A DNA stretch of 64,000 nt from an uncultured Gammaproteobacteria bacterium (GTDB taxonomy: Bacteria; Pseudomonadota; Gammaproteobacteria; SZUA-229): positions 121 to 64,120 of the forward strand of contig CAWKAL010000110.1 of NCBI GenBank assembly GCA_963847575.1, read 5' to 3'. A model generated the notes under the pieces. That model saw nothing but the letters and a program-made list of their open reading frames with translations. It was not told where the DNA came from and did not search any database. Made by a program: the position numbers and the translations under genes. Positions 4,202-42,994 of the stretch are shown here, in pieces. How positions within the stretch are numbered: position 1 is the stretch's first letter; every line of letters starts with the position of its first letter.

Positions 4202-4313
4202 TTGCCGCAAATAACGCAAATAAACGCGATAAGAGTTTTTTAACTGTAACTATGGCATAAGCTGTATACGGCTTATTGTTTTAATTTGCGAGTATTTGCG
4301 TTCATTTGCGGCC
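4202..4313. repeat. Palindromic intergenic element (CGCAAAT/GAACGC word type) between convergent rhlB and purK
   Basis: The left arm tgccgcaaataacgcaaataaacgcga (about 4202-4230) is the imperfect reverse complement of the right arm tcgcgagtatttgcgttcatttgcggcc (about 4286-4313). A small central hairpin ataagc..gcttat is present. Confidence 0.75.
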
Positions 4314-4330
4314 AATACCTTTTTACGTTT

Positions 4331-5458
4331 TTATTGTTTATCAGCCAACCTCGCAAACACGTCCTCGGCGATCGCCAGCGCAGCTTCTACATTGTCTGAC
4401 AATACATTGAAGTGCCCCATCTTGCGTCCCGGGCGGGCGTGTTGCTTGCCGTAGAGATGCAGCTTGATTTCGGGGTGTTGCAGAATTTCCAGCCAGCTGG
4501 GCGGCCACAGATCACCCAGCATGTTGACCATCACCACCGGCGAGGTCAGCCGGGCATCGCCAGCCGGCAGGCCGCACATCATGCGCACCTGTTGTTCAAA
4601 CTGCGAAGTGACGCAGGCATCCCTGGTGTAATGCCCGCTGTTGTGCGGGCGCGGCGCCATTTCGTTGAAATACAGCGTGCCGTCCTTCGCCAGAAAAAAT
4701 TCCACTGCCAGCACCCCGGTGTAATCCATCGCCTCGGCAAGCTTCATCGCCTGCGCGCGCGCCGTATGGGTAATGCCCTGCTCGACCCGTGCGGGCACAA
4801 TGCTGAGATGTAAAATCCCGTCGAGATGCTGGTTTTCCGCCACCGGGAAACTGACTGAAGAAATCGAGTTGCGCGCGATAATGGCAGACACTTCCAGCTG
4901 CAAATCAATTTTTTTCTCCAGTACGCACTCGACCTGCTGCATGCCATGCCAGGCATCGCGCAGCTCGGCCTCGGTGGTCACCACCACCTGGCCCTTGCCG
5001 TCGTAACCCAGGGTGGCGCTTTTTAAAATACCTGGAAGCCCGACGTCAGCCAGCGCCGGTTCAAGATCACTTTCGCTACGGATCACGTGATACGGCACCG
5101 GCAACAGGCCGGCATCACGTGCAAAGTGTTTTTCACGGTTTCGATTTTGCGCAATTTCGAGCGCATCGGGCGACGGGAACACCGGGCATTTGTTTGCCAG
5201 GTAACGCAGGCTGTCAGCGGGAACGTTTTCAAATTCGGTGGTGATCGCATCACATAATTTCGCGAGCCGGTCGAGCGCGGCATGATCAGTGAAATCAGCC
5301 TGGATATGATGATCCGCAATACGCCCGGCAGGACTGCCCGCATCGGGATCGAGCACCGCAAGCTGGTAACCCATGGTGCGCGCCGCCACGCAGAACATGC
5401 GGCCGAGCTGGCCGCCGCCCAGTACACCCAGTGTAGCCCCGGGTAAAATCACGCTCAT
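4331..5458 (-). CDS. purK: N5-carboxyaminoimidazole ribonucleotide synthase
   Basis: 375 aa with an ATP-grasp fold. N-terminus LGVLGGGQLGRM, located directly downstream of purE. Confidence 0.9.
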   Translation of the reverse strand: MSVILPGATLGVLGGGQLGRMFCVAARTMGYQLAVLDPDAGSPAGRIADHHIQADFTDHAALDRLAKLCDAITTEFENVPADSLRYLANKCPVFPSPDALEIAQNRNREKHFARDAGLLPVPYHVIRSESDLEPALADVGLPGILKSATLGYDGKGQVVVTTEAELRDAWHGMQQVECVLEKKIDLQLEVSAIIARNSISSVSFPVAENQHLDGILHLSIVPARVEQGITHTARAQAMKLAEAMDYTGVLAVEFFLAKDGTLYFNEMAPRPHNSGHYTRDACVTSQFEQQVRMMCGLPAGDARLTSPVVMVNMLGDLWPPSWLEILQHPEIKLHLYGKQHARPGRKMGHFNVLSDNVEAALAIAEDVFARLADKQ

Positions 5459-5470
5459 GACTTTCGCTGA

Positions 5471-5974
5471 TTAACCTGCGGGCGGGAGGTGCATCGCAAA
5501 CACCGCCTGCTGCTGGGTGTCGCGGAAAGCATCGAGCTTGCCGGCAAGTGTGGCGTCGCTGACAGCGAGAATAGATATCGCGTAGAGCGCCGCATTAATC
5601 GCCCCGGCTTCACCAATTGCAAACGTCGCCACCGGGATACCCTTGGGCATTTGCACGATAGACAGCAATGAATCCATGCCCTTGAGATAACGCGAAGGCA
5701 CCGGTACACCCAGTACCGGCACGGTCGTTTTTGATGCCAGCATGCCCGGCAGATGTGCAGCGCCACCGGCACCGGCAATAATGCAGGCAAAGCCCTGGTC
5801 ACGCGCTGCCGCCGCATATTCGAACAAAAGATCCGGAGTGCGGTGCGCAGACACCACGCGCGCCTCGTACGGCACACCAAAGGCTTCGAGCTGTTTTACC
5901 GCATGTTCCATCACCGGCCAGTCGCTATCACTGCCCATCACCACGCCTACTTTCAAAGTCGCCATTTTGACCAC
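5471..5974 (-). CDS. purE: N5-carboxyaminoimidazole ribonucleotide mutase
   Basis: 167 aa. Motifs [14 protein letters not shown] and [10 protein letters not shown] are typical of PurE. An alternative start lies at 5965. Confidence 0.93.
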
Positions 5975-6065
5975 CCCTGTAAAGAGGAAAAGCGGGGCAT
6001 TCTATACGAAATCTACGACACGCGGAAATGTGTGTTATCTGGTAAATAATACGGCGGAGGAAAAC

Positions 6066-6420
6066 ATGGTGGTTATGGGTGGACTTGAACCTCTGTTGCG
6101 GGTCAGGGCGACCCGCGGATTATGGGTGCGTAGCACTCCGCATTCACTACCACGGATGTTCGGTAATGTGATGCGGGAAGAGTATGGTGGTTATGGGTGG
6201 ACTTGAACCTTTGTTGCGGGTCAGGGCGACCCGCGGATTATGGGTGCGTAGCACTCCGCATTCACTACCACGGATGTTCGGTAATGTGATGCGGGAAAAG
6301 TATGGTGGTTATGGGTGGACTTGAACCTTTGTTGCGGGTCAGGGCGACCCGCGGATTATGGGTGCGTAGCACTCCGCATTCACTACCACGGATGTTCGGT
6401 AATGTGATGCGGGAAAAGTA
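6066..6420 (-). repeat. Three tandem ~118-119-bp units, each a degenerate tRNA-Met-derived pseudo-tRNA ending in the exact 3' 25 nt of the adjacent tRNA-Met
   Basis: Units start at 6066, 6185 and 6303, and the real tRNA starts at 6421. The units differ by only about 2 substitutions. Each minus-strand unit contains GGTAGTG-AA-TGCG-GAGTGCTA-CGCA (acceptor/D-arm-like), CATAAT..GGGTCG (an anticodon-loop remnant at the same spacing as in the real tRNA), and GGTTCAAGTCCACCCATAACCACCA. Confidence 0.85.
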
Positions 6421-6497
6421 TGGTGGTTATGGGTGGACTTGAACCACCGACCCCAGCATTATGAATGCTGTGCTCTAACCAACTGAGCTACATAACC
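6421..6497 (-). tRNA. tRNA-Met (anticodon CAT), elongator-like
   Basis: The reverse complement GGTTATGTAGCTCAGTTGGTTAGAGCACAGCATTCATAATGCTGGGGTCGGTGGTTCAAGTCCACCCATAACCACCA folds as a cloverleaf and closely resembles E. coli metT. tRNA-Ile2 (lysidine-modified CAT) cannot be formally excluded. Confidence 0.9.
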
Positions 6498-6559
6498 ATA
6501 GATTTGAAGGGCGCAGATTGTGGACTTTCAGACCGAAATTGTCAATCCGACCTGGCCGA

Positions 6560-7651
6560 TTAGACGTTAAACCGAAAGTGCATGACATCGCCGTCCTTGA
6601 CGATGTAATCCTTGCCTTCGACGCGCAGCTTGCCCGCTTCTTTCGCGCCCTGCTCACCCTTGTGTGCAACAAAGTCATCGTAGGCGATGGTTTCGGCGCG
6701 GATAAAGCCTTTTTCGAAATCGGTGTGGATCACCGCGGCGGCTTTGGGTGCGGTGGCACCTACGGCGACGGTCCAGGCGCGCACTTCTTTGACCCCGGCG
6801 GTGAAGTAGGTTTGCAGGCCGAGCAAGCTGTAGCCGGCGCGGATCACCCGGTTCAGGCCCGGCTCTTCCAGCCCCAGTGCTTCTAAAAACTCGGTGCGCT
6901 CAGCGTCTTCGAGTTCAATCAGCTCGGCTTCGATCGCCGCGCATACCGGCACCACCAGCGCGTTTTCATCTGCGGCGTGTGCGACAACGCTATCCAGATA
7001 GGGATTATTTTCGAAGCCGTCTTCATTGACATTGGCGATGTACATCACCGGCTTCATGGTGATCAGGTGAAACTCGTAGAGGTCAGCGCGTTCTTCCTTG
7101 CTCAGTTCCATCGCGCGAATCGGTTTGCCAGTGTCGAGCTGGACTTTTACTTTTTCCAGCAGTTCGAGTTTGGCTTTGGCGGCTTTATCACCGCTCTTGG
7201 CAACCCGCGCCATGCGGTAGATGCCTTTCTCGATGCCTTCGAGATCGGCCAGCGCCAGTTCGGTATTGATCACTTCGATATCCGACAGCGGGTTGATCTT
7301 GCCGGCGACGTGCACGATGTCGTCGTTCTCGAAACAGCGCACCACGTGCGCGATGGCATCGGTCTCGCGAATATTGGCAAGAAACTGGTTGCCCAGGCCT
7401 TCACCTTTGGAGGCACCCGCGACCAGGCCGGCGATGTCGACGAACTCCATGGTGGTCGGCACCACGCGCTGTGGCTTGACGATCTCGGCAAGTTTGTCGA
7501 GCCGTGGATCGGGCACCGGGACGATGCCGACATTGGGCTCGATGGTGCAGAACGGATAATTTTCCGCCTGGATGCCCGCCTTGGTCAGCGCATTGAACAG
7601 CGTGGATTTACCCACATTCGGCAAGCCGACGATACCGCACTTGAATCCCAC
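6560..7651 (-). CDS. ychF: Ribosome-binding ATPase YchF
   Basis: 363 aa. G1 motif [10 protein letters not shown]-terminal TGS domain, pth-ychF synteny. Confidence 0.96.
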
Positions 7652-7654
7652 GTT

Positions 7655-8245
7655 TTACCTCGGACTATGTAATTGTTGCATCGCCTGTTCCCAGGCACCT
7701 TCGGCCAGTAGCGGCACCACTTTCAGCGACTCTGCAACCGCGTCATCGATCAGTCGGTGCTCTTCCATGGAGGCGCGGTGTAACACGTAATCTGCCACCT
7801 GTTCCTTGTTACCCGGATGACCCACACCCAGGCGCAGGCGCTGAAACTCCCTGGTACCAAGGTGGCTGACAATATCACGCAGGCCATTATGACCGCCGTG
7901 ACCACCGCCGGATTTAAGTTTTACTGCACCGACATCAAGATCAATTTCGTCATGCGCCACCAGCATATTTTCCGGCTTGAGCTTGTAGAAAGACAGCAGG
8001 CTTTGCACTGCAATGCCGCTGCGATTCATGAAGGTATCGGGTTTCAACAACCAGATATCATTGCCATGCACATCAATGCGCGTGACTTCACCATGAAACT
8101 TGCGATCCACTGCAAACCGAGCGCCATAGGCACTGGCGAGCTCATCCACAAACCAAAACCCGGCGTTATGCCGGGTTTCAGAGTATTTTGCGCCGGGATT
8201 ACCGAGGCCGACAATGGCGTGGATATCAATTGTCAGTGCCGCCAC
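7655..8245 (-). CDS. pth: Peptidyl-tRNA hydrolase
   Basis: 196 aa. Motifs GLGNPG..Y..TRHN(A)GF and GHGGHNGLRD. Confidence 0.95.
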   Translation of the reverse strand: MAALTIDIHAIVGLGNPGAKYSETRHNAGFWFVDELASAYGARFAVDRKFHGEVTRIDVHGNDIWLLKPDTFMNRSGIAVQSLLSFYKLKPENMLVAHDEIDLDVGAVKLKSGGGHGGHNGLRDIVSHLGTREFQRLRLGVGHPGNKEQVADYVLHRASMEEHRLIDDAVAESLKVVPLLAEGAWEQAMQQLHSPR

Positions 8246-8287
8246 CTTATCTCCACATGCGCGCTGGGTTGAACTGCATCAACAGGA

Positions 8288-8953
8288 TTAATCCTTGTCC
8301 TTGTCCTTATCGTCTTCATCCTCAGACGCAACTTCTGGTGCTTCTGGTGCTTCCGGTGCCTCTTCATCAACTTCAACAGCCTTGCGCTGATGCACATTAG
8401 CCACCGCAGAGTCATGATCTTCACCCTGTCTCAACGCCAGCAGTTCAACACCCGCCGGTATATTGAGGTCAGACAAATGAATGATGTCGCCCATGTGCAT
8501 GCCAGACAGGTCCACTTCGATAAACTCGGGGATATCTTTTGGCAAACATTCGACTTCAACTTCACTCACCACGTGGCTGATGGCACCGCCTTCAGTCTTG
8601 ACGCCCGGCGCTTCTTCATCACCGATGAAATGCAGCGGCACGTGCACGTGGACCACTTTCTTCGCGTCAACGCGCAGAAAATCCATGTGCATAATGTCGA
8701 TCTTGTACGGATGATGTTGCAGGTCACGCAACAGCACGTCTACTTTCTTGCCGGCCACATTGAGTGCCAACACCTGTGTATAGAAAGCTTCGTTGTGCAT
8801 TTGATACTGCACGTCTTTCTGTTCCAGCGTGAGGTTCTGCGGGTCCTTGCCGGCACCGTAGACAATTGCCGGGATTTTATTTACGCGACGCAGGCGGCGG
8901 CTCGCACCCTTCCCCATGTCCTCGCGTAATTCAGCGTTAAGTTCAATACTCAT
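8288..8953 (-). CDS. rplY: 50S ribosomal protein L25 / general stress protein Ctc
   Basis: Long-form L25 with an acidic C-terminal tail. The start at 8953 (MSIELNA..) is preceded by GGAG at about 6 nt spacing. Confidence 0.9.
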   Translation of the reverse strand: MSIELNAELREDMGKGASRRLRRVNKIPAIVYGAGKDPQNLTLEQKDVQYQMHNEAFYTQVLALNVAGKKVDVLLRDLQHHPYKIDIMHMDFLRVDAKKVVHVHVPLHFIGDEEAPGVKTEGGAISHVVSEVEVECLPKDIPEFIEVDLSGMHMGDIIHLSDLNIPAGVELLALRQGEDHDSAVANVHQRKAVEVDEEAPEAPEAPEVASEDEDDKDKDKD

Positions 8954-8993
8954 AATAATCTCCAATAACTCGCTCTTGCCTGGGGCTCAAGCG

Positions 8994-9023
8994 AAATAAA
9001 AAACTTCTCCGCGACCAGAGAAG
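8994..9023 (-). terminator. Rho-independent terminator-like hairpin downstream of prs, in the rplY leader
   Basis: The minus strand reads CTTCTC-tggtcgcg-GAGAAG followed by TTTTTTATTT. A second perfect 9-bp hairpin (CTGCTGTGA-atga-TCACAGCAG) lies just upstream on the same strand. Confidence 0.5.
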
Positions 9024-9115
9024 CACTGCTGCTGTGATCATTCACAGCAGGTTTCCGCACCCGCACCGGCGAATCTAAGCCGTGCAGGTCCAAAATTCTT
9101 TTCGATTCAATCAAT

Positions 9116-10074
9116 CAGTCGATATACATTTCGCTGACTGATTCTTCGTAATGTATACGTCGAATCGTTTCCGCCAGCATGGTCGAAATCGACACCTGGC
9201 GGATACGACTGCAGGTCTTTGCTTCCTCGCTGAGCGGGATGGTGTCGGTCACCACCAGTTCATCGAGCATCGAGTTAGCGATGTTTTCGATCGCATTGCC
9301 CGATAGTACCGGGTGGGTACAATACGCCGAAACACTCGCAGCGCCATGCTATTTTAACGCACTCGCGGCCTTGCACAGGGTGCCGGCGGTATCGACCAGG
9401 TCATCCACCAGCACACAATTCTTGCCTTCGACTTCACCGATAATGTTCATGATCTCGGCTACATTCGCCTTCGGGCGACGTTTGTCGATAATCGCCAGTT
9501 CGGCATCACCGAGGCGTTTTGCCAGCGCTCTCGCCCTGACCACGCCGCCGACATCCGGCGACACTACCAGCAGGTCCTGGAAACCTTTCTGCCAGACATC
9601 GGCCAGCAGGATCGGCGAGGCATAGACATTATCGATCGGTATATCAAAAAATCCCTGGATCTGGTCAGCATGCAGATCGACGGTTAACAGCCGGTTTACT
9701 TTCACACTGGTCAGCATGTTCGCCACCACTTTCGCCGTGATCGGCACCCGCGCCGAACGCGGTTTTCTGTCCTGGCGTGAATAGCCGTAATACGGTATCA
9801 CTGCGGTAATGCGTTTCGCCGAGGCACGCCGCATGGCGTCGATCATCACGATCAGCTCCATCAGGTTGTCGTTGGTCGGCTGGCATGTCGGCTGGATCAG
9901 GAACACATCCCGGCCACGCACGTTTTCCATCACTTCGATGCAAATTTCGCCATCACTGAAGGTCTCGACACTGATTCTGCCCAGCGAGGTATTCAGATGC
10001 GACGCAATCTTCTGCGACAGCTCGGGATTAGCATTACCCGAAAATATTCTCAACCGGCTGTCTTCTTTGGTCAC
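9116..10074 (-). pseudogene. prs: Ribose-phosphate pyrophosphokinase with an in-frame TAG at 9349..9351
   Basis: Prs homology is colinear along the full length (..[48 protein letters not shown]). The same frame continues after the TAG down to a TGA at 9116. The start is probably GTG at 10074 or TTG at 10053. Confidence 0.88.
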
Positions 10075-10100
10075 GTCTGGTCTCGTCTGTGCTTCAAAAA

Positions 10101-10371
10101 TGGCTGGGTCGGGAGGATTTTCTCGCGCCTCCCACATTCACCAGATCACTGCGTAATTACCACTTTGCAATCCGGCACATCTATTCTATATGGCTGGGCC
10201 GGGAGGATGACTCGGGCGCCTGCCCTTCGCCCTGCGGGCCAGCCTTCGGCTGTTCTGATTTGCGCCAGGCAAATCAGTCGAACCTGTCTATTATTCCGGA
10301 GGTTCGAACCCTCCCGCATTACCAGATGTCTTCGTCTCAAACTCTTAGCAATCAGGCACATCTATTCTATA
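10101..10371 (-). repeat. Two degenerate tRNA-Gln-derived units (about 90 and 181 bp), each ending in the tRNA-Gln 3' terminus
   Basis: tggctggg(t/c)cgggaggat recurs at 10101, 10191 and 10372 (the real tRNA). A 35-nt duplication ggcacatctattctatatggctgggccgggaggat is present. The larger unit contains a perfect T-arm-like GGAGGTTCGAACCCTCC and a 9-bp hairpin ctgatttgc-gccag-gcaaatcag. Confidence 0.75.
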
Positions 10372-10446
10372 TGGCTGGGCCGGGAGGATTCGAACCTCCG
10401 AATGCCAGGATCAAAACCTGGTGCCTTACCGCTTGGCGACGGCCCA
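10372..10446 (-). tRNA. tRNA-Gln (anticodon TTG)
   Basis: The reverse complement TGGGCCGTCGCCAAGCGGTAAGGCACCAGGTTTTGATCCTGGCATTCGGAGGTTCGAATCCTCCCGGCCCAGCCA is close to E. coli tRNA-Gln. The ispE-tRNA-Gln-prs position is conserved. Confidence 0.93.
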
Positions 10447-10530
10447 ATAATTCAAACTTGCTAACAACCAGCAGTCATACATGACTCACTGTGACTTGCC
10501 AGTTCAGGCTCGTCGGCCAGTCAACGCTAT

Positions 10531-10597
10531 CGAACCTCCGGATGCCAGGATCAAAACCTGGTGCCTTGCCCCAATATCATAGAGCCGCGACGGCCCA
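10531..10597 (-). pseudogene. Truncated or disrupted tRNA-Gln copy
   Basis: It matches the real tRNA-Gln from the 5' end through the anticodon arm to the T-loop (..CAGGTTTTGATCCTGGCATCCGGAGGTTCG). The D-arm region is disrupted, and the 3' T-stem and acceptor are missing. Confidence 0.65.
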
Positions 10598-10612
10598 ATA
10601 ATATCTTGCTGC

Positions 10613-12072: not shown

Positions 12073-12120
12073 AATCAGCGCTCGCCAGCAGCACTGGCCG
12101 CGTTGGCTGGGTATTGAATT

Positions 12121-13881: not shown

Positions 13882-14026
13882 CTGGTAAATATAACGTATT
13901 TTTAGCGCCGAGCTTTATTGTATCGTGCAAATGCACAACACTGTATATTTCATGTTAGCAGCAGAGCTTGAGTTCAACCCATGCATACCGCAAAATTAGC
14001 CGTTTTCTCGCCAGCCTTAGCACCCT

Positions 14027-15301: not shown

Positions 15302-15351
15302 AGACTGTAAACTCGCCATCCTGCCTGCCGGCAGTGCAGCGCGAAACTAGC

Positions 15352-16437: not shown

Positions 16438-16438
16438 G

Positions 16439-23788: not shown

Positions 23789-23932
23789 GGCCGCAGATAT
23801 AAACAAAATAAATTAAAATCTGGCCGCGAAATACGCAAAGAACGCAGAAAGAACGCAAAGCGAATTAATTTCAAATATTGTTTGGCGTACTTTGCGTATT
23901 TCGCGGCAAAATTATTTTCTTGCAATCTGTTT
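23789..23932. repeat. Nested palindromic intergenic element
   Basis: Inner arms are ggccgcgaaatacgcaaagaacgc and gcgtactttgcgtatttcgcggc. Looser outer arms are cagatataaacaaaataa and ttattttcttgcaatctg. The element abuts the cyaY stop codon. Confidence 0.7.
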
Positions 23933-24271
23933 TTATCGACGCTCGTCTGTTGACAAACTAACAACTTCCCCGCCCTGCTCGGTGGCGAGGCGGCTTAGCA
24001 TGGCGTAGAGTTCTTCGTGGTCGGCGTTGTCACAAATCCAGCGCGATGATGCTTCATCGTAGTCAAAGTGAAAACCGCCGGATTTTGCCGCCATCCACAA
24101 CTGCTTGACCGGCGGCTGCTTGCTGAAAATAATCTTGCTGCCGTTTTCGAATTCCAGCGTCAATACGCCACCGCTTTCTTCGTAGTCGATATCGGCGCCG
24201 CTATCGTCGATAGCCGTCTGGATGTTTTCGATAGTTTCATCGGCCAGGTCACGAAATTCTGATTCGTTCAT
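23933..24271 (-). CDS. cyaY: Frataxin homolog CyaY
   Basis: 112 aa. Motifs F..LAD.T...I...ID, GGVLTLEF.NGSKIIFSKQ.P..QLW.A.KSGG.HF. Confidence 0.9.
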   Translation of the reverse strand: MNESEFRDLADETIENIQTAIDDSGADIDYEESGGVLTLEFENGSKIIFSKQPPVKQLWMAAKSGGFHFDYDEASSRWICDNADHEELYAMLSRLATEQGGEVVSLSTDERR

Positions 24272-24335
24272 AATGATATTAAATCGCCACAGAGGGCATA
24301 GAGATCACTGGGGAAAACAAACGCGTAATGATTTG

Positions 24336-24439
24336 TCCGCGAATGAACGCAAATGAACGCGAATAAAACTTTTGTATGCTGTAAAAGCGGACCGCAGGCG
24401 CATCTAATTATCTGCGTTCATTTGCGTTCATTCGCGGCT
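24336..24439. repeat. Palindromic intergenic element (AATGAACGCA word type)
   Basis: The left arm tccgcgaatgaacgcaaatgaacgcgaataaaa faces the right arm ctgcgttcatttgcgttcattcgcggct, a near-perfect reverse complement. Confidence 0.8.
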
Positions 24440-24461: not shown

Positions 24462-25881
24462 TTATTTCGTATCAGCTGCGTTGACCTGGCCCGGGTTGGC
24501 TTTGCCTTTCGACGCTTTTAGCACCTGGCCGACGAAGAAGCCCATCAGCTTGTCTTTGCCGCCCTTGAGTTCGGCAAACTGTTCCGGGTTGTTGGCGATG
24601 ACTTCATCCACCATGGCTTCGATGGCGCCGCTGTCGGTGATCTGTTTCAGGCCGCGGCTTTCGATGACGGCATCTGCGCTGCCTTCACCGTTCCACATGG
24701 CGTCGAATACTTCTTTGGCGATCTTGCCGGATATCGTGTTGTCCTTGATGCGCGTGAGCAAACCGGCGAAGGCTTCAGCATCGACTTTCGACTGGCTGAT
24801 GCCGAGTTCTTCCTTGTTCAGGCGCGCGGACATTTCACCACTGATCCAGTTGGCGGACAGTTTTGCATCGGCGGATTTTTCGGCCACGGTTTCAAAGTAA
24901 TCCGCCAGTTCGCGTGATGCTGTTAGTACCGCCGCATCATAGGCTGACAGGCCGAACGCATCTATGTAACGCTGTTTTTTCTGTTCCGGCAGTTCCGGCA
25001 GCTCGGCGCGCACTGTTCGAGATAGTCTTCGGTCACTACCACCGGCAGCAAATCCGGGTCCGGGAAATAGCGATAATCGTTGGCCTCTTCCTTGCTGCGC
25101 ATGGAACGGGTTTCATCACGATCAGAATCGTACAGCCGGGTTTCCTGCACTATGCTGCCACCGTCTTCGATGAGGTCGATCTGGCGTTCGATTTCGTGGT
25201 TGATTGCACGTTCGACAAAACGGAACGAGTTGATGTTTTTGATTTCCGCGCGGGTACCGAACTCTTCCTGGCCCACCGGCCGCACTGAGACATTGGCATC
25301 ACAACGGAACGAACCTTCCTGCATGTTGCCATCACAGATATCGAGGTAGGTCACCAGCGCGTGCATTTTTTTCATGTAGGCCACGGCTTCTGCGGCTGAA
25401 CGCATGTCGGGCTCGGACACCACTTCGAGCAACGGCGTGCCGGCGCGATTCAGGTCGATCCCGGTCATGCCGGCATAATCTTCGTGCAGCGATTTACCGG
25501 CATCTTCTTCGAGATGCGCGCGGGTCACGCCAATGCGCTTGGTGTCGCCATTTTCGAGTTCGATATCGATATGCCCCATGCCCACGATCGGCAGTTCAAC
25601 TGGCTGATCTGGTAACCCTTGGGCAAATCCGGATAAAAATAATTCTTGCGCGCGAACACCGAGCGCGGCGCAACTTTCGCGTCAATCGCCAGACCGAACT
25701 TGACCGCCATGCGCACCGCTTCCTTGTTTAACACCGGCAACACACCCGGCAGCGCGATATCGACCGCGCAGGCCTGGGTATTGGGCTCGGCACCATAGGC
25801 GGTACTCGCCGCCGAAAATATTTTCGACTTCGTCGCCAGCTGCACGTGTATTTCAAGACCGATAACTGCTTCGTAATTCAT
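24462..25881 (-). pseudogene. gatB: Asp/Glu-tRNA amidotransferase subunit B, frame broken twice (near 25013 and 25596)
   Basis: Three overlapping ORFs (25525..25881, 24962..25585, 24462..25013) are colinear with a complete GatB. Adding one G at each junction (TTGAACTG to TTGGAACTG; CAGTGCGC to CAGGTGCGC) restores ..[15 protein letters not shown].. and ..[14 protein letters not shown].. Confidence 0.9.
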
Positions 25882-25913
25882 GTTAAAAATTAGTCATAAG
25901 GAAAAAACTGTAT

Positions 25914-26044
25914 ATCCACAGATGAACGCGGATAAACACAGATAATTATTGTTCAAACACTCCGGATCACAATTCACTATTCACTATTCACTATTCACTA
26001 TTACACTATTCTACATTATTCACTTATTCATTATTCATTATTCA
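25914..26044. repeat. Half palindromic element plus a TTCACTA/TTCATTA heptamer array between gatB and gatA
   Basis: atccacagatgaacgcggataaacacagataa is followed by 4 perfect TTCACTA copies (25973-26000) and degenerate TTCATTA copies that run into the gatA stop codon (26042-26044). Confidence 0.8.
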
Positions 26045-27505
26045 TTCGAATCCCTTCGGGATTCGCGTATGCCAGTCAGTTTCCTGCTGATATTGATGCG
26101 CAACGTTCAGCAGGCGGCTTTCTTCAAAGTAATTTCCGATCAATTGCAGGCCTACCGGCATGCCATTGGCAAACCCGGCCGGGATCGACATGCCGGGCAG
26201 GCCGGCGAGGTTGACTGCAATGGTGTAGATGTCAGACAGATACATCGATATCGGGTCATCGGCTTTTTCACCGATTTTGAATGCCGTGCCCGGGGCGGTC
26301 GGCCCCATGATGACATCGACTTTTTCGAATGCCTTTTTAAAATCGTCACTGATGAGGTGGCGCAACTGCTGTGCTTTGAGGTAATACGCATCGTAATAAC
26401 CGGCAGACAGGGCATAGGTACCGACCATGATGCGGCGCTTCACTTCAGCACCAAAACCTTCGCCGCGCGAACGTTCGTATAAATCTGTCAGGTCTTTCGG
26501 ATCTTCACAGCGATAACCGTAACGTACACCATCAAACCGTGACAGGTTGGCGGAGCATTCCGCCGGCGCGACCACGTAATACACCGGTACTGAAAGCTCG
26601 CTGTTGGGCAGTTCGATTTCAATCAGCTCGGCGCCCATGGATTTGTAGTGTTGCAGTGCCTGCTGAATGACGCTTTCTACAGCTGCGTCCATGCCGTGTG
26701 CAAAATATTCTTTCGGCAGACCGATGCGCAGCCCGCGCAGCGGCAGGTTGAGCGCATTGGTGTAATCTTCCGTTTCGCGCTCCAGGCTGGTGGAATCCTT
26801 TTCATCAAACCCGGTCATGCTGTTTAACATCAATGCGCAATCTTCCGCGCTTTGCGCCATCGGCCCGCCCTGGTCGAGGCTGGAGGCAAACGCAATCATG
26901 CCGTAACGCGACACTGTGCCATACGTCGGTTTCAGCCCGGTAATGCCGCACAGCGCAGCTGGCTGGCGAATCGAGCCGCCGGTATCCGTGCCAGTCGCAG
27001 CGGGTGCCAGCCGTGCTGCCACGCTCGCAGCCGAACCGCCGGAGGATCCACCGGGGACACATTCAAGGTCCCATGGATTTTTGACTGCACCGTAGTAACT
27101 GGTTTCATTGGATGAACCCATGGCAAATTCATCCATGTTGGTTTTACCCAGCATGACGACGCCGGCGCGTTTAAATTTTGCCACCACGGTCGCATCGTAA
27201 GGTGAAATAAAATTGTCCAGCATTCTCGAGCCGCAACTGGTGCGCACGCCTTCGGTGCAAAAAATATCTTTATGCGCCAGCGGAATTCCACAGAGCGCAT
27301 CGGCATTGCCGGTTTTCAATGTTGCATCAGCCGACAGTGCAGCCTGCATCGCCAGTTCTTCAGTCAGGGTGACAAAGCTGTTGAGCTGCGCATCGTGCTG
27401 TTTAATACGCGCCAGGAAATGTTCTGTCAGCTGCTGGCTGCTGACGTCGCCGGACTGCAGCAGGGCTGACAGCTCGCTCAGTGACTGGGTGTGATACTCA
27501 CTCAT
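26042..27505 (-). CDS. gatA: Glutamyl-tRNA(Gln) amidotransferase subunit A
   Basis: 487 aa. Amidase signature GGSSGGSAA, full-length GatA. Confidence 0.96.
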
Positions 27506-28099: not shown

Positions 28100-29173
<1,074 letters not shown>

Positions 29174-32323: not shown

Positions 32324-32418
32324 TTGATTGCATCGAATCACGCCGCAGTTTGCAAGCTGTTGAAACCTGCGTGCCGAACAAACCGGTATTGTAAATATGA
32401 ACTATCTATGAACTATCT

Positions 32419-33315: not shown

Positions 33316-33328
33316 GACGAGTTAATAA

Positions 33329-33475
33329 TTATCCATGGATGAACGCTGATGAACTCGGATAAAAAGCAGGTCAATGTCTGCGAAAAACGTAAAACCAGTT
33401 AATTTTTGTTTTGCGTTTTTCGCAGACTATTATTTTTGTTGTTATCTGTGTTCATCAGCGTTCATCCGTGGATAA
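33329..33475. repeat. Doubly nested palindromic intergenic element
   Basis: Outer arms are ttatccatggatgaacgctgatgaactcggataa and ttatctgtgttcatcagcgttcatccgtggataa. Inner arms are gtctgcgaaaaacgtaaaac and gttttgcgtttttcgcagac. Confidence 0.85.
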
Positions 33476-33521
33476 TTGTTCTTTGTTATGAAGATGAAAT
33501 GACGCGCAGGTTATCAAACTG

Positions 33522-34274: not shown

Positions 34275-34362
34275 GGCTATACTTCCACAGGCAATCAGCA
34301 GGAGTCGCCAATTTTAACAGGTAGCTGGCGGTGGCGCTCACTGAGTTATAAAGCAAAACTCA

Positions 34363-34546
34363 AAAGCGAAACCGCAAAGGCGCAAAGATTGCAAAGAAAA
34401 TCTAAATTACAGGGCGGGCTACGCCCGCTAAAAGATACATGCAAGCGTTCATTTCTTACTTTGCGTCCTTTGCGCCTTTGCGGTCAATTTTTTTACCCTT
34501 ATCGGTTTTCTCTGCGACCTCTGCGCTCGTCTGCGGTTTCGCCTTT
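34363..34546. repeat. Nested palindromic intergenic element (GCGCAAAG / CTCTGCG word types)
   Basis: Arms are accgcaaaggcgcaaagattgcaaag and ctttgcgtcctttgcgcctttgcggt. The core hairpin is gcgggc-tac-gcccgc. Outer arms are agcgaaaccgca and tgcggtttcgcc. Confidence 0.8.
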
Positions 34547-34559
34547 AAATCCGTTATAC

Positions 34560-36032: not shown

Positions 36033-36080
36033 GAGTTGTTGTTATTTTTACGGCCAGGGGATGCATAAAGATTAGCACAT

Positions 36081-36121
36081 AAATAAAAAAACCCCCGCCA
36101 GGGACTACCGAGGCCGGGGTT
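36081..36121 (-). terminator. Rho-independent terminator downstream of the cytochrome c/FTR1 gene
   Basis: The minus strand reads ACCCCGGCC-tcggtagtccct-GGCGGGGGT followed by TTTTTTTATTT. Confidence 0.7.
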
Positions 36122-36143
36122 TGATCGGCGCCCGCCAAAGGCT

Positions 36144-38096: not shown

Positions 38097-38170
38097 AAAT
38101 GAAAACGATTCGCATTATGATATAAGGACTTACTTATGTCAAATACCACCGCGTGCGCATTGGGGATAGG

Positions 38171-38322
38171 GAATAATTAATAATGAATAATGTAATAGTG
38201 AATAGTGAATAGTGAATAGTGAATAGTGAATAGTGAATAGTGAATTTTAAAATTAGCTACCTGCTCGGTTCAGGTTTTTTTTCATTATTCATTATTCATT
38301 ATTAATCATTCATTATTAATTG
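38171..38322. repeat. Palindromic intergenic element with an AATAGTG heptamer array
   Basis: Seven perfect tandem AATAGTG copies (38194-38242) lie in the left arm. The right arm cattattcattattcattattaatcattcattattaattg is the imperfect reverse complement of gaataattaataatgaataatg. Confidence 0.85.
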
Positions 38323-38328
38323 CTTCCC

Positions 38329-40341
38329 TCATTCCAGCATCGCGCGCAGTCCGGCGAGGTGCGACTTGCCCTTGTCCTGGGTGGTTTTTTCCTGGCGTGC
38401 GCCGCCGTGCCATTCGAGTTCGTCCTGTGGCAGCTCTTCGATGAAGCGGCTGGGTTCGCAAATGTTACGTTCACCGTAGCGTTTGCGGGTTTTTGCCATG
38501 GTCATGGTCAGTGTGCGTTGCGCGCGGGTGATCCCGACATAGGCGAGGCGGCGTTCTTCTTCGATGGTGTCCTGCTGAATGCTGGTGGCATGCGGCAGCA
38601 ACTGTTCTTCAAAGCCGACCAGGAATACATGCGGAAACTCCAGTCCCTTGGCGGCGTGCAGGGTCATCAGTTGCACGCCATCGACATCACGCTCATCTTT
38701 ATTGCGCTGCAGGATATCCATCAGTGACAAACGCGAAATCAGGTCGGCCAGCGACCGGGTTTCTTCCTGTTTTTGCAGGCGCGTGATCCATTCACGCAAT
38801 TCCAGCACATTCGCCCAGCGGCGTTCGGCGGTTTCCACATCCTTGCTCTGCTCCATCAGCCAGCCTTCGAAACCGATATCATCCAGCAGACTTTGCATAA
38901 TAGTGCTGGCTGCGTCATCTTCGGCGCGGTGTGCGAGACGCAGCAGCCAGTCGGTAAACTTGTCGAGGTGTTTGATCGCACTGGCGGGCACGTGCGACTG
39001 CAGCCCGACTTCACCGCAGGCGGTGAGCAGGCTGACGCCTCGATCAGTCGCATAACGGCCAATTTTTTCCAGCGTGACTGAGCCGATATTGCGCCGCGGG
39101 GTGTTGATCACGCGCAAAAACGCGGCATCATCATCCGGGTTTGCCAGCAACCGCAAATACGCAGTGACATCCTTGATCTCGGTACGATCAAAAAATGACA
39201 GGCCACCGCTGACCACGTACGGAATATTGAGATTACGCAACTGCTGTTCAAATAAACGTGCCTGGAAATTGCCGCGGTATAAAATCGCGTAATCGCGGTA
39301 GCGACCATTGTTCTGCAATTTGTGCGACTGCAGTTCGATACAGACGCGCTCGGCTTCTGCATTTTCACTGCTGCATTCAATCACCCGTAGCGGATCACCA
39401 TAACCCAGCTCGCTCCACAGGTTTTTTTCATAGACATGCGGGTTGTTGCGTATCAGCTGGTTGGCGACCTTGAGGATGCGGCCGCAGGAACGATAATTTT
39501 GTTCGAGCTTGATCACATTCAGTTTGGGAAAATCGATCGACAGCTGCTCGAGGTTCTCCGGCCGTGCGCCACGCCAGGCGTAGACCGACTGGTCATCATC
39601 GCCGACCGCGGTCAGGCAATGGCGTTTCGCGGTGAGCAGCTTGACCAGCTCGTACTGCATTGCATTGGTGTCCTGGTATTCATCCACCAGTAAATAATGA
39701 ATGCTGTTTTGCCAGTTTTCGAGAATATCCAGCCGCTGCCTGAACAGCGCCACCGGCTGTAATATCAGGTCGTCGAGGTCGAAGGCGTTGTAGGCGTGCA
39801 ACTGGCGCTGGTATTTCACATAGGCACGCGCGGCCTGCAGTTGCGAATCGTCTTCTGCCGCGGCAATCGCCTGCTCGGGCAGCAGGCCGTCGTTCTTCCA
39901 GCTGGAGATCTGCGCCTGCACCCTGCCCGCAAGATCGAGGCCGCGTTCACCGCGCGCACTCAGCAGCTCCTGCAGGGTGGAAATGGCGTCCTGGGTATCA
40001 AACACGGTAAACCCGGCCTTGTAATCCAGCGCGGTGTATTCCTTGTGCAGAATATTCAGCCCGAGGCGATGAAAGGTAGACACGCGCAGGCCTTTCGAGG
40101 CCTTCGATCCGACCAGGCTTTTGACCCTGGATTTCATTTCTTCCGCGGCCTTGTTGGTAAACGTCACCGCCGCGATATGGCTGGCCGAGATGCCGCAGGG
40201 CCCCAGCAGGTAGGCAATTTTTTCGGTAATGACGCGGGTCTTGCCGCTGCCGGCGCCCGCCAGCACCAGCATCGGGCCATCAATACGCTTCACCGCGCGC
40301 GCCTGCTGCGGATTTAAGCTGGGACTGGATTTTTGACTCAC
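38329..40341 (-). CDS. rep: ATP-dependent DNA helicase Rep
   Basis: 670 aa, UvrD/Rep SF1 motifs (AGAGSGKT, LVDEYQDTN, TLHAAKGLEF, YVGITRA). Length and N-terminus (LNPQQ..AV) fit Rep. Confidence 0.92.
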   Translation of the reverse strand: MSQKSSPSLNPQQARAVKRIDGPMLVLAGAGSGKTRVITEKIAYLLGPCGISASHIAAVTFTNKAAEEMKSRVKSLVGSKASKGLRVSTFHRLGLNILHKEYTALDYKAGFTVFDTQDAISTLQELLSARGERGLDLAGRVQAQISSWKNDGLLPEQAIAAAEDDSQLQAARAYVKYQRQLHAYNAFDLDDLILQPVALFRQRLDILENWQNSIHYLLVDEYQDTNAMQYELVKLLTAKRHCLTAVGDDDQSVYAWRGARPENLEQLSIDFPKLNVIKLEQNYRSCGRILKVANQLIRNNPHVYEKNLWSELGYGDPLRVIECSSENAEAERVCIELQSHKLQNNGRYRDYAILYRGNFQARLFEQQLRNLNIPYVVSGGLSFFDRTEIKDVTAYLRLLANPDDDAAFLRVINTPRRNIGSVTLEKIGRYATDRGVSLLTACGEVGLQSHVPASAIKHLDKFTDWLLRLAHRAEDDAASTIMQSLLDDIGFEGWLMEQSKDVETAERRWANVLELREWITRLQKQEETRSLADLISRLSLMDILQRNKDERDVDGVQLMTLHAAKGLEFPHVFLVGFEEQLLPHATSIQQDTIEEERRLAYVGITRAQRTLTMTMAKTRKRYGERNICEPSRFIEELPQDELEWHGGARQEKTTQDKGKSHLAGLRAMLE

Positions 40342-40449
40342 GGGGGCTCCACAAACGAAGCCGCCATTGTACGCAAGATGCGGGAAATATCATCCTGTCA
40401 TGGGGGTGATGGATCTGGTCGGTGAATTAGGGTATGGAAGATTACTAAT

Positions 40450-40614
40450 ATCCACAGATGAACGCAGATGAACACGGATAAAAGCAAATAATATTGTCCG
40501 CGAAAAACGCAAATGACGCGAATAAAAACATTAAGTTTGTATTTTGCGTTCTTTGCGTTATTCGCGGCTGATATCTTTGCTTTTATCTGTGTTCATCTGC
40601 GTTCATCCGCGGAC
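40450..40614. repeat. Doubly nested palindromic intergenic element
   Basis: Outer arms are atccacagatgaacgcagatgaacacggataaaagcaaa and tttgcttttatctgtgttcatctgcgttcatccgcgga. Inner arms are tccgcgaaaaacgcaaatgacgcgaataaaaac and gtattttgcgttctttgcgttattcgcgg. Confidence 0.88.
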
Positions 40615-40699
40615 GATTTTTTGTCTGCAGTTCAAAAACACCCCCTGAACCAGCTAGACTCTGTTAACTAACGAATAAATAACAAATTTTAAATACCAC

Positions 40700-41276
40700 A
40701 TGCAGATTGATCCCAGCACTGGCCTGATTCGCGAAGCGCGCCAGGTGGCCTCGCCCAACGCCGATGACCGGCCTGCGGGTGCGCCGCTGGATCTCGTGGT
40801 GCTGCATTCCATCAGCCTGCCGCCGGGTGAGTTTGGCGGGCCGTGGATAGAGCAGCTGTTCTGCAATACCCTGCCGCCGGATGAGCACCCCTATTTCGCC
40901 GAGATTCACGCCGTTAAAGGTCTCTGCGCATGTGCTTATCAGGCGCGATGGCGAGCTGGTCCAGTTTGTCCCCTTCCAGCAGCGTGCCTGGCACGCCGGG
41001 CAGTCAAATTACTGCGGCCGCGAGGCCTGCAACGATTTTTCCATCGGCATCGAACTTGAAGGCACCGATGATTCGGCATTCGAAGCCATCCAGTATGAAA
41101 CCCTGGCCGCGCTGATCACCGCGCTCTGCGCCACCTACCCGGGGATCAACCGTGACCACATCACCGGCCACAGCGATATTGCACCGGGACGAAAAACAGA
41201 CCCCGGCAGTGGATTTGAATGGGATAAACTTTATGCCCTGCTGGATAGCAGCGCGCCCGATCAACAATCGGCGTGA
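40700..41276 (+). pseudogene. ampD: 1,6-anhydro-N-acetylmuramyl-L-alanine amidase AmpD, frame broken once near 40910
   Basis: ORFs 40700..41059 and 40881..41276 together give a full AmpD (..SPN.DDRP..LVVLHSISLPPGEFGG.., then VSAHVLIRRDGELVQFV..RAWHAG.S..GRE.CNDFSIGIELEG..GHSDIAPGRKTDPG). Total length is 3n+1. Confidence 0.85.
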
Positions 41277-41301
41277 GACTGGCGCTGCCACGTTACTAAT
41301 T

Positions 41302-42147
41302 ATGTCACTCATAACCGTCATTATTGCCCTGATTCTTGATCGCCTGTTGCGCGAGCATCATGACCTGCGCGACCTTGGCTGGTTCGAGCATTATTCCGGC
41401 TGGCTCAGCAAGCGGCTGCCCATTGGCAGCCCCGTGCTGAACATCATCCTGATCCTGTTGTTACCGCTGGGCCTGATCCTGCTGGTTCAGCTAGCGCTGC
41501 ATGACACCCTGTTTAATGGCCCTTATTTTATATTTGGTGTGCTGGTCGTGATTTATTGTCTCGGCCCGGCCTGCCTGGCCAGCGACATCGAAGCCTACCT
41601 GGACGCACGCAGCCTGGGTGATGATGAAGAAGCCATGCATTATGCAGGCGTGATCACCGAACGCTCGGCATCGACCGTGCCTGACCAGCAAACCTCCGAT
41701 GTCACGCGCGCCATTCTGTATGTCGCCAACCAGCGCATATTTTCGGTACTGGTCTGGTTCGTATTGCTCGGCCCGATTGGCGCAGTGCTGTTTCGCTTCA
41801 TCACCCAGCTCGCCAGGGACGACGACAATTCTCCCGGGCAAATCCAGCTGGCGAAAAAACTCCACGCCTGGATGGCCTGGTTACCTGCACGCATGCTCGC
41901 CCTTGGCTACGCGATGATGGGAAATTTTGAAAGCGCCGTACAGGCGTATCGTTCTCGTACCCCCGAACCTGACCTCGGCTTACGCAATTATGACGTGCTG
42001 GTGACTACCGGTATCGGCGCTATCAAGGACCACGCCGAACTGGACGAGGTGGCCAGCATCCACGCCGTGCGTGGACTGGTGATGCGCTCTGTGCTGCTCT
42101 GGGTCACCATGCTTGCCTTACTCACCATGGGTGGCTGGTTAAGTTGA
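41302..42147 (+). CDS. ampE: AmpE-like inner-membrane regulatory protein
   Basis: The start MSLITVIIALILDRLL matches the AmpE N-terminal pattern. Polytopic membrane protein located directly after ampD. Confidence 0.7.
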   Translation: MSLITVIIALILDRLLREHHDLRDLGWFEHYSGWLSKRLPIGSPVLNIILILLLPLGLILLVQLALHDTLFNGPYFIFGVLVVIYCLGPACLASDIEAYLDARSLGDDEEAMHYAGVITERSASTVPDQQTSDVTRAILYVANQRIFSVLVWFVLLGPIGAVLFRFITQLARDDDNSPGQIQLAKKLHAWMAWLPARMLALGYAMMGNFESAVQAYRSRTPEPDLGLRNYDVLVTTGIGAIKDHAELDEVASIHAVRGLVMRSVLLWVTMLALLTMGGWLS

Positions 42148-42740
42148 AAACCCGGATTGATGTCATACGCCATGGCGAACCCGTGGGTGGCAGACGTTAT
42201 CGTGGCCACGGTGTTGATGACCCCTTGACCGAAACAGGCTGGCAGCAAATGTGGGCATCTACACCTGAAACCCTACAATGGGATGTGATTATCAGCTCGC
42301 CATTGTTGCGCTGTGCGGAATTTTCCCAGGCGCTTGCCGCGCGTATGCAGTGTCCGTATGAAATTGTAGATGCGATGAAAGAAATCGGCTTTGGCGCCTG
42401 GGAAGGCAAAACGCCCGAAGAAATCATTGCGGCCGATGCCATGGCACTGGAGCGGTTTTACGCAGACCCGGTACATAACCGCCCTGCCGGCGCCGAATCA
42501 CTCGAAGATTTTTCCGCACGCGTGTGGCAGGCCTATAGCGAGATTGCCGAGAAACACCCGGGCAAACGCGTGCTCATCGTAGCGCACGCCGGCGTCGCGC
42601 GCGCGGTCATCGCCAATGTACTGCGCATGTCACTCGATGATGTCTACAGCCGCCTGAAAATCGAATACGGCGCGGTGGTGTCCACCCTGATCGAAAAAGA
42701 AGGCGGCACACCCAAGATGCTGGTGGCGAATTGTTTATAG
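42144..42740 (+). CDS. Histidine phosphatase family protein (CobC/alpha-ribazole phosphatase-like)
   Basis: RHG motif (VIRHGEP) and a second catalytic His (IVAHAGV). 198 aa. Its start overlaps the ampE stop. Confidence 0.78.
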   Translation: MKTRIDVIRHGEPVGGRRYRGHGVDDPLTETGWQQMWASTPETLQWDVIISSPLLRCAEFSQALAARMQCPYEIVDAMKEIGFGAWEGKTPEEIIAADAMALERFYADPVHNRPAGAESLEDFSARVWQAYSEIAEKHPGKRVLIVAHAGVARAVIANVLRMSLDDVYSRLKIEYGAVVSTLIEKEGGTPKMLVANCL

Positions 42741-42753
42741 AAAGTTAAAACCT

Positions 42754-42994
42754 AAGGCGCAACCGCAGAGGCGCAGAGGACGCTGAGAAAACATTCTTAA
42801 AATTGTAAAAATGATTGGCCGCAAATTACGCAAAGAACGCAAATAAAATCTTTATGTCTGGACGGGCTTCGCCCGCCGAATAGCCACCGATTTATTTTTA
42901 CTTTGCGTCCTTTGCGTAATTTGCGGCAATTAATTTTTTTGCATATAACCTGTAATCTTTCTCTGCGTCCTCTGCGCCTCTGCGGTTGCGCCTT
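42754..42994. repeat. Triply nested palindromic intergenic element
   Basis: Outer arms are aaggcgcaaccgcagaggcgcagaggacgctgagaaa and tttctctgcgtcctctgcgcctctgcggttgcgcctt. Middle arms are ggccgcaaattacgcaaagaacgcaaataaaat and atttatttttactttgcgtcctttgcgtaatttgcggc. The core hairpin is gggc-ttc-gccc. Confidence 0.88.

Follow-up and report, generated by a model that had tools for sequence, protein, structure and literature searches.

What are the hairpins that crowd the gaps between genes in this stretch of gammaproteobacterial DNA? The stretch analysed here, referred to as the window, comprises 64,000 nt, and the elements studied lie at its positions 4,188-50,085. Our comparison with other genomes indicates that these hairpins are very probably gene-less members of a family of hairpin cassettes. 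As read from the sequences, a cassette of this family consists of two inverted arms, of about three CRC units each, around one small gene for a GxxExxY protein, and the resulting GxxExxY hairpin repeat is very widespread and apparently undescribed. The hairpins occupy gene ends and operon spacers, are stacked in one another, and are replaced wholesale between strains whose flanks are ~98% identical. The explanation we favour as a whole adds to this gene-less membership a GxxExxY nuclease that would act on the hairpins in trans, and we put its probability at roughly 0.55.

The arms follow a grammar of about three tandem units of 9-10 nt, each opening with CRC (CGC or CAC) and otherwise poor in C. 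Written as a generic pattern (CRC followed by 5-8 non-C bases, three times over), it matches 18 times in the 64 kb, against 1.6 ± 1.4 matches expected from Markov shuffles, and 17 of the 18 fall within the loci named below or in the orphan arm at 50057-50085. The four word types distinguished by a sequence-only reading of the window do recur, but three of them, A (CRCNGATGAA), B (CGCAAA/CGCGAA) and C (CRCAGAGG/CGCAAAGG), are not discrete: they are variants of one unit, C-R-C-N-R-A-..., and hybrids occur, such as the arm at 24337 (CGCGAATGAA CGCAAATGAA CGCAGATAA). The fourth, type D (GAATAGT), has a period of 7 and is a class apart.

A repeat search recovered inverted repeats with arms of 25-42 nt that are 76-97% complementary, at 33324-33480 (arms 42 nt, 88%), 42754-42994 (37 nt, 97%, with an inner repeat at 42807-42938), 34371-34484 (with an outer repeat at 34362-34546), 40451-40613, 24337-24437, 23817-23913, 38166-38321 and 4188-4328. 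The folds were compared with those of shuffled sequences, giving a free energy of -136 kcal/mol and a z-score of -16.6 for 42745-43000, -96.8 kcal/mol and -15 for 40440-40625, and -68.5 kcal/mol and -5 for 34355-34555, the last with one 5' arm and two alternative 3' arms. The inverted repeats with word-array arms, some of them nested, that had been described from the sequence are thus borne out by the repeat search, the excess of arm matches and the folds. All nine loci of that description were found at or near their places, the intergenic hairpin loci numbering ten in our count; both of its orphan half-arms are present (24286-24320 and 50057-50085), and the several pairing registers it envisaged are real, since alternative overlapping inverted repeats were recovered. 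The locus at 25914-26044, however, is not the hairpin it was taken for, being composed of one type A arm and a heptamer array.

To which gene do such arms belong? Type A arms were searched in two collections, with a 19-nt degenerate pattern that gave 85 stretches in IMG/VR and a 23-nt pattern that gave at least 120 in one-genome-per-species contigs; counts from the collection scans are lower bounds, and the samples are not random. Among the matches listed there are 73 paired elements and 51 solo arms, and the paired elements divide by the length of their loops as follows.

Loop of up to 60 nt: 34 elements
Loop of 61-170 nt: 26 elements
Loop of 171-340 nt: 4 elements
Loop of 341-520 nt: 7 elements
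Loop of more than 520 nt: 2 elements

Six of the seven listed elements with loops of 341-520 nt hold exactly one open reading frame (ORF), and all six ORFs are homologous. Against NCBIfam TIGR04256 ("GxxExxY protein") they reach 136-147 bits, and against Pfam PF13366 (PDDEXK_3), the sole Pfam match of the cassette protein, 141 bits. The gene starts within its own arm: the ATG lies inside a GATGAAC unit of the 5' arm, so that the proteins begin with MNAD... or MNTD.... A type A element with a 389-nt loop in a Thiotrichales metagenome-assembled genome (MAG; L111 1503-1965, comparison contigs being given as L numbers) contains no GxxExxY ORF and no long ORF, and is either a decayed cassette or the carrier of other cargo.

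All three CRC-type arms enclose GxxExxY genes: type A in these six elements, type B in L275 and L210, and type C in L291-L293 between gatA and gatB. The L275 cassette lies between carA and carB, and its type B arms (GTCCGCGAATAACGCAAAAGACGCGAAAAAAG ... CTTTTTTCGCGTCTTTTGCGTTATTCGCGG, then a solo type A arm) are nearly the same as window 40497-40568; the longer window stretch 40440-40625 can be aligned with both ends of this cassette, the 440-nt gene being absent. The arms of the L210 cassette read CGCAAATGAA. Searched with a profile of the six proteins, JGI metagenome contigs gave more than 594 relatives, of which the best 80 were fetched, and most of 78 metagenome GxxExxY genes, as read off the table and uncounted, are bracketed by inverted CRC-unit arms. 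The arms are near-identical across phyla, although the GxxExxY proteins are only ~50% identical.

The cassette can be followed at one orthologous site, the spacer between gatA and gatB (window 25882-26041). GatA homologues of 98, 94, 90, 90, 89 and 80% identity led to the syntenic contigs L286, L287, L288, L291-L293, L294 and L296, and across these relatives the spacer takes four states. In L296 (80%) the site is empty, and gatA and gatB overlap (ATGA). L291, L292 and L293, identical in sequence and from three samples, hold a full cassette, in which the gatA stop TAG abuts CCACAGAGGCGCAGAGTACAAGAGAAAAC, followed by a ribosome-binding site, a 124-aa PF13366 gene, TCTCTGCGGCCTCTGTGCC and a second copy. 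This second copy has retained its two type C arms together with the first 17 codons and the final bases of the gene, and is an internal deletion caught in place, of the kind known from miniature inverted-repeat transposable elements (MITEs). In the window, L286 and L287 the remnant is a heptamer array of variable copy number with one type A arm, and in L288 and L294 heptamers with one type B arm. Given the cassette of L291-L293, type C arms belong to GxxExxY cassettes, and do so in the window's own lineage; the gene-less forms come from internal deletion. The window's gatB (24462-25881) is itself split over three frames (24462-25013, 24962-25585 and 25525-25881). As close-strain metagenome contigs have an extra T after 25015 and after 25598 and one base fewer at 24479, these frameshifts are probably assembly indels and not the mark of a pseudogene.

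What might the enclosed protein do? An AlphaFold model of the L291 protein, computed from a 34-sequence alignment, reached a predicted local distance difference test score (pLDDT) of 93 and a predicted template modelling score (pTM) of 0.86. Its nearest Foldseek matches in the PDB are lambda exonuclease, Cas4 SSO0001, LHK-Exo, the Argonaute-associated Cas4-like ACE1 and the nuclease domain of AdnAB. GxxExxY is thus predicted to be a minimal RecB/Cas4-like PD-(D/E)XK nuclease, of a branch whose enzymes act on single strands and DNA ends; a sequence search of the PDB gave no solved relative. The source paper of the Pfam entry gives the function of PF13366 as unknown and describes clades that mix bacteria and archaea, and the literature on GxxExxY, PF13366 and TIGR04256 yielded nothing about repeats.

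The elements of the window are the following.

4188..4328: type B hairpin between convergent genes, with arms CCGCAAATAACGCAAATAAACGCG (4205-4235) and its complement (4281-4313)
23789..23932: type B hairpin (arms 23817-23845/23885-23913) in decayed A-like outer remnants (GCAGATATAAAC ... CAATCTGT), occupying the convergent gap between cyaY and the tetratricopeptide repeat (TPR) gene up to the cyaY stop; type A hairpins stand at the orthologous site in L286 and L287
24286..24320, minus strand: orphan type C-like half arm, CCACAGAGGGCATAGAGATCACTGGGG on the plus strand; conserved in L286
24335..24439: A/B hybrid hairpin (CGCGAATGAA CGCAAATGAA CGCGAATAA) in the gatB-cyaY spacer; its loop holds a small GC hairpin, GCGCCTGCGGTCCGC, present too in type A elements of relatives
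25914..25947, plus strand: solo type A arm, TCCACAGATGAACGCGGATAAACACAGATAA; metagenome contigs that begin and end at 25914/15 and 25945 have many different flanks
25968..26044: type D tandem heptamer array (CACTATT/CATTATT) running into the gatA stop codon; copy number varies among relatives
33324..33480: nested element in the ubiA-ttcA convergent gap, type A outer arms (33324-33365/33439-33480) around a two-unit B-like hairpin (33376-33395/33408-33427)
34362..34546: type C element in the spacer between the AAA ATPase gene and ttcA, with 5' arm 34362-34399, GC core hairpin 34412-34431 and alternative 3' arms 34456-34484 (CGCAAAGG type) and 34508-34546 (CGCAGAGG type)
38166..38321: type D hairpin in the rep-FTR1 spacer, with heptamer-array arms (GAATAGT/GAATAAT versus CATTATT) and a small core hairpin (38259-38275) followed by T8
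40450..40614: nested element in a divergent promoter region, type A outer arms (40451-40488/40576-40613) around a type B hairpin (40497-40527/40540-40568)
42754..42996: triple-nested element, type C outer arms (42754-42790/42958-42994) with AAGGCGCAA prefix, type B inner arms (42807-42848/42897-42938) and GC core (42861-42878)
50057..50085, minus strand: orphan type C arm, CACAGTGGTCACAGAGAACGCAGAGG on the minus strand, directly downstream of the stop of a 1715-aa gene

The flanking genes are those that had been guessed from the sequence: cyaY, gatB, gatA, ttcA, an AAA ATPase, an FTR1-cytochrome fusion, rep and cobC. That elements fill almost every gap between 23.8 and 43 kb is overstated, as they occupy 8 of the 14 gaps of at least 50 nt; gaps of at least 150 nt all contain one, except for the gatC/mreB promoter region, and the gap between FTR1 and the AAA gene has an ordinary terminator instead. 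Elements abut or overlap the gatA and cyaY stops, as proposed, but the rep stop is 7 nt off. The nesting order, with A or C outside and B inside, holds in every nested case here and in relatives, except that two C types are interleaved in L288. Type C arms have an extra conserved outer module, AAAGGCGAAACC ... GGTTTCGCCTTT, which types A and B are without (42754-42762/42986-42994; 34362-34370/34538-34546; also L288 and L291). Two small GC-rich hairpins recur innermost in different elements and sites, CGGGCT(A/T)CGCCCG (window 34412-34431 and 42861-42878) and GCGC(C)CTGCGGCGC (window 24384-24400, L286 9255-9275 and L287 13115-13135), and may either belong to the mobile unit or make up another tiny repeat family.

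How stable are these elements in their places? Four other spacers were compared with their orthologues.

gatB-cyaY: A/B hybrid in the window; the same hybrid in L286, where one arm is partly deleted; in L287, type A whose loop is homologous; type C in L288, L291 and L294
cyaY-TPR: B inside decayed A in the window; type A in L286 and L287
AAA-ttcA: C around C around a GC core in the window; B within A in L287; two C types interleaved in L288; C around a one-unit hairpin in L291
ttcA-ubiA: B within A in the window; B within A in L287, with a different B; C in L288

Compared with L286, the window has 1-2 differences per 80 nt in its coding flanks, yet the whole cyaY-TPR spacer is unrelated, as are the last five or six codons of cyaY. 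The C-terminus of CyaY accordingly reads ...SLSTDERR* in the window (23933-23950) and ...RLSESE* in L286 (98%). In L291 (4634-4723), a type C arm adds a 19-residue C-terminal extension to TtcA (269 versus 250 aa). The FTR1-AAA terminator and, likewise, the promoter region of gatC/mreB are conserved throughout the genomes compared. In the ~90% clade, 12 of the 12 hairpins detected are of type C, the arm type of its cassette, and the window's clade mixes A, B and C. The heptamer hairpin between rep and FTR1 is kept in L288, where GAATAGT has become GAAAAGT in both arms, with compensation. Whole gene-less units occur at different sites, because a type A element with the loop GTGCGC(C/A)CTGCGGCGCAA stands between cyaY and TPR in L286 and between gatB and cyaY in L287. 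The orthologous spacers of related strains thus show modular shuffling and not conserved terminators.

The family extends far beyond this lineage. Listed type A matches, with the consensus (N)A(A/G)CC-RC-N-GATGAAC, three times over, come from Planctomycetota, Cyanobacteria, Acidobacteriota, Verrucomicrobiota, Alpha-, Beta-, Gamma- and Deltaproteobacteria, Chloroflexi, NC10, Binatia, Leptospiraceae and one Methanoperedens archaeon. A perfect three-unit type A arm, TAACCGCAGATGAACGCAGATGAACGCAGAT, stands in this Candidatus Methanoperedens MAG (L100), so the consensus crosses the domain boundary. Cultured carriers encountered include Wenzhouxiangella sediminis XDB06 (L152), with Dolichospermum or Microcoleus strains as further candidates. 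Arm pairing is maintained through covariation: at the R position of the outer unit, 104 type A hairpins drawn from many phyla show A-T pairs in 56 cases, G-C pairs in 41 and other combinations in 7, and the covariation fades toward the loop. The phage and prophage contigs of IMG/VR (L001-L085) have mostly solo type A arms upstream of structural genes. Widely separated arms in the phage contigs L020, L035 and L047 were considered as cassettes and rejected, for they bracket ordinary phage genes and are probably separate solo arms. A plasmid BLAST search with the 42754-42994 element gave three short arm matches only, all unannotated. Of ~210 fetched loci, 34 from several phyla (L087, L097, L118, L164, L172, L178 and L192 among them) combine type A arms with tandem heptamer arrays, which often form inverted pairs 100-200 nt apart; this suggests that heptamer-armed hairpins are a widespread companion class.

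In sequencing runs, the window stretch was found in sediment DNA only and in no RNA run. Sediment metagenome depth over the arms is 20-400 times that of the flanking genes, as the summed contig depths show.

Type A arm with heptamers, 25927-26057, run X2: depth 8718, flanking genes about 20
Type C arm, 42968-42993, run X2: depth 511, flanking genes 22.7
Type C arm, 42968-42993, run X3: depth 302, flanking genes 11.7

Together with the type A stretches in many phyla, this places the words well beyond the window in strongly enriched numbers. Many metagenome contigs with unrelated flanks stop at the arm borders 25914/15, 25945 and 42995/96, and several link the type C arms (42787 to 42956) via other short loops without the nested B, so the inner B module of 42754..42996 is separable.

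How could gene-less hairpins be numerous and uniform around a single gene? We propose that a GxxExxY nuclease, resident at a fixed locus, would act in trans on hairpins of its own arm type, much as RAYT, the REP-associated tyrosine transposase (REP, repetitive extragenic palindrome), acts on REPINs, or Ssn on NTS repeats. An extruded or single-stranded hairpin would be cut and the break repaired by copying from another copy, which would spread the hairpins, keep them uniform within a lineage and replace whole spacers. New copies would drop into the loops of resident hairpins, since the outer arms supply homology, and nesting would result; use as terminators or RNA stabilisers, if any, would be secondary. 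A resident nuclease acting in trans is favoured by the position of the L291 gene, which occupied the same locus on each of the 10 contigs shown, out of 23 on record. This mechanism remains tentative, and we hold it at somewhat worse than even odds. Doubtful still is its extension to a pan-prokaryotic system of hairpin repeats that would run parallel to REPIN/RAYT and NTS/Ssn and have GxxExxY proteins as its trans-acting nucleases. The single-copy resident nuclease would there recognise stems of three helically phased units, copies would insert at the apex of resident hairpins, copy-repair would homogenise the lineage, and heptamer-armed hairpins resembling the short tandemly repeated repetitive (STRR) sequences would be a sister class with the same logic.

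A number of observations weigh against this proposal. A hidden Markov model of the six cassette proteins found no GxxExxY ORF in the 64-kb window, where all copies are gene-less, and no biochemical activity is on record for the GxxExxY family. No movement of a cassette was seen: the exact L291 protein occurs on 23 contigs from many samples, at gatA-gatB in the 10 of 10 shown. No target-site duplication is visible at gatA-gatB or cyaY-TPR, and no clean excision or insertion junction was found, the only empty site being in a relative diverged to 80%. The L275 arms are abundant in sediment runs from which the gene body is absent, and one sediment contig joins these arms without the gene. The whole viral collection contains only 2 GxxExxY genes against its 85 arm stretches, which makes viral contigs uninformative on arm diversity, and the type D heptamers are tied to no gene here. 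Labels of arm variants on the protein tree require 24 changes, against 26.5 ± 1.35 when shuffled; because they cluster this weakly, a specificity of the protein for the variable arm positions is unsupported, and the matching of variable R/N positions to protein specificity was dropped.

Could gene and arms instead form an autonomous selfish cassette that moves as a unit, the window's hairpins being its dead, MITE-like remains? The empty, full and deleted states at one orthologous site speak for this, as do the wedging of the cassette between the normally overlapping gatA and gatB, the internally deleted copy that adjoins the full one, and arms that stay near-identical across phyla around proteins of only ~50% identity. 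We nevertheless consider it unlikely, since the identical gene keeps to one locus in many samples, neither a target duplication nor a second site was seen, and gene-less copies far outnumber genes, in viral contigs as elsewhere, with those of one clade sharing the arm type of its single resident gene. Selection by the host for RNA elements (bidirectional terminators, operon insulators or mRNA stabilisers), with the nuclease gene as a passenger, would account for the placement at 3' ends and in convergent gaps, the A-rich and T-rich borders beside the arms, the terminator-like cores in a consensus scan (38259-38275, 40596-40613 and 34414-34428) and the covariation that keeps the pairing. However, genuine terminators nearby are short and conserved, whereas the hairpin elements are replaced wholesale; some of the latter lie between the co-transcribed, normally overlapping gatA and gatB, where termination would be harmful, and 40450-40614 lies in a divergent promoter region. 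There is no consistent bias between sense and antisense folds either (of 15 spacers, 11 have a negative difference in energy, sense minus antisense, but values close to zero are frequent and one reaches +18 kcal/mol), and the link of gene and arms is far too regular for a passenger. We thus regard this reading as improbable.

Phased binding arrays for an immobile nucleoid or regulatory protein would fit the three units per arm and the 9-10-nt period, which at roughly 10 nt would put the sites on one face of the helix, but leave inverted symmetry with covariation, the enclosed nuclease gene, nesting and wholesale replacement all unexplained, and are highly improbable. The earlier suggestion of REPIN-like elements mobilised by a RAYT or IS200-like enzyme (an HUH Y1 transposase) encoded elsewhere draws on a resemblance in intergenic hairpin doublets, many copies and lineage-specific sequence types. 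It did not hold up: every loaded element examined carries PF13366 and never PF01797, the arm ends, (T/G)A(A/G)CC-CRC, are without the GTAG or CGTC tag of REP sequences, and the arms are arrays of tandem units, not single palindromes of 20-40 nt. We give it hardly any credence.

The gene-less cassette members we propose are thus to be set beside the known repeat systems. Enterobacterial bacterial interspersed mosaic elements (BIMEs) are modular intergenic mosaics of palindromic REP units (palindromic units, PUs) in alternating orientation at the 3' ends of genes; their modules, PUs of 35-40 nt with fixed linkers, stand side by side and not hairpin in hairpin, and no gene is known to be enclosed in a BIME. 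The separation from classical REP/BIME elements drawn from the sequence stands, with word-array arms, nesting and modular shuffling. No catalogued family matches: the elements have no Rfam match (a scan of the window reported two tRNAs only), 13-17-nt type A words are absent from the searchable literature, and a search of the literature on STRR and small dispersed repeats gave nothing usable. The tandem heptanucleotide arrays that Mazel and co-workers reportedly described in 1990 in the intergenic DNA of cyanobacteria, the STRR sequences, resemble the type D arrays, and heptamers stand beside type A arms in the cyanobacterial loci L087, L164 and L172. Unlike STRR sequences, the heptamers of this gammaproteobacterium either build both arms of a hairpin or stand in for one arm of a CRC-type element. 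The MITEs (Correia/NEMIS, RPE, Nezha) are likewise non-autonomous derivatives of a gene-bearing parent by internal deletion, as is seen in the deleted copy of L291, but no transposase or target-site duplication was seen here, and the ends are arrays of short units in place of simple terminal inverted repeats.

Among systems in print, Ssn/NTS comes closest (Chenal et al., 2025; PMC11893778), followed by REPIN/RAYT. In both Ssn/NTS and the present family, a small single-domain nuclease gene is framed by a hairpin repeat, and Ssn acts on its own repeat, which has hundreds of gene-less intergenic NTS/SRM copies in many phyla (PMC11893778). Unlike Ssn, a GIY-YIG enzyme (cd10448), GxxExxY has a predicted PD-(D/E)XK fold like RecB and Cas4, and unlike NTS, a single short hairpin for which neither nesting nor type replacement has been described, its repeat has arms of three phased tandem units. 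Cleavage of the flanking repeat as single-stranded DNA has been demonstrated for Ssn (PMC11893778); for GxxExxY, an action on its arms is proposed. With REPIN/RAYT (PMC3116915; PMC3337134; 10.1101/2021.07.10.451892) the family shares intergenic inverted doublets that form hairpins, a resident gene in single copy between repeats of its own type, lineage-specific repeats and vertical inheritance at a fixed locus. It differs in its enzyme, which is no HUH Y1 transposase, in its tandem-unit arms, in an arm consensus common to many phyla, and in its ends. The REP superfamilies are defined by a 20-40-nt palindrome with a conserved tetranucleotide, GTAG or CGTC, at one of its ends (PMC3733652); this tag is absent from 104 aligned elements, whose outer ends read (A/G)(A/G)CC and then CRC, and from the outer ends in the window (ATCCAC, GGCCGC and AACCGC). 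As the enzyme features that define the two systems were tested and not found, the family belongs to neither Ssn/NTS nor REPIN/RAYT.

Two further repeats of the window lie at tRNA genes. A direct duplication of ~117 nt at 6207-6559 includes the 3' end of a tRNA gene (6424-6497, minus strand) and resembles an attachment site or a scar of an integrated element. At 10297-10400, a 20-nt inverted repeat (CGGAGGTTCGAACCCTCCCG/CGGGAGGATTCGAACCTCCG) adjoins the tRNA of 10375-10446, perhaps as a second remnant of a tRNA-like T-arm in the opposite orientation; Rfam reports one tRNA only at this place.

What would the favoured explanation mean for these organisms? If true, it gives a testable role to the orphan GxxExxY/PF13366 proteins, a very large family of unknown function, and explains the hairpin repeats that clutter the intergenic DNA of many phyla, together with spurious ORFs such as MNADER and ICVHLRSS. 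If the nuclease does cut the arms, it would be, after RAYT and Ssn, the third and structurally unrelated small nuclease with its own dispersed hairpin, and its phased three-unit recognition could serve as a programmable cutter specific for hairpins or single-stranded DNA. For the bacteria themselves, the consequence is already seen in operon spacers and in the last codons of cyaY, ttcA and gatA, which are rewritten between strains otherwise ~98% identical.

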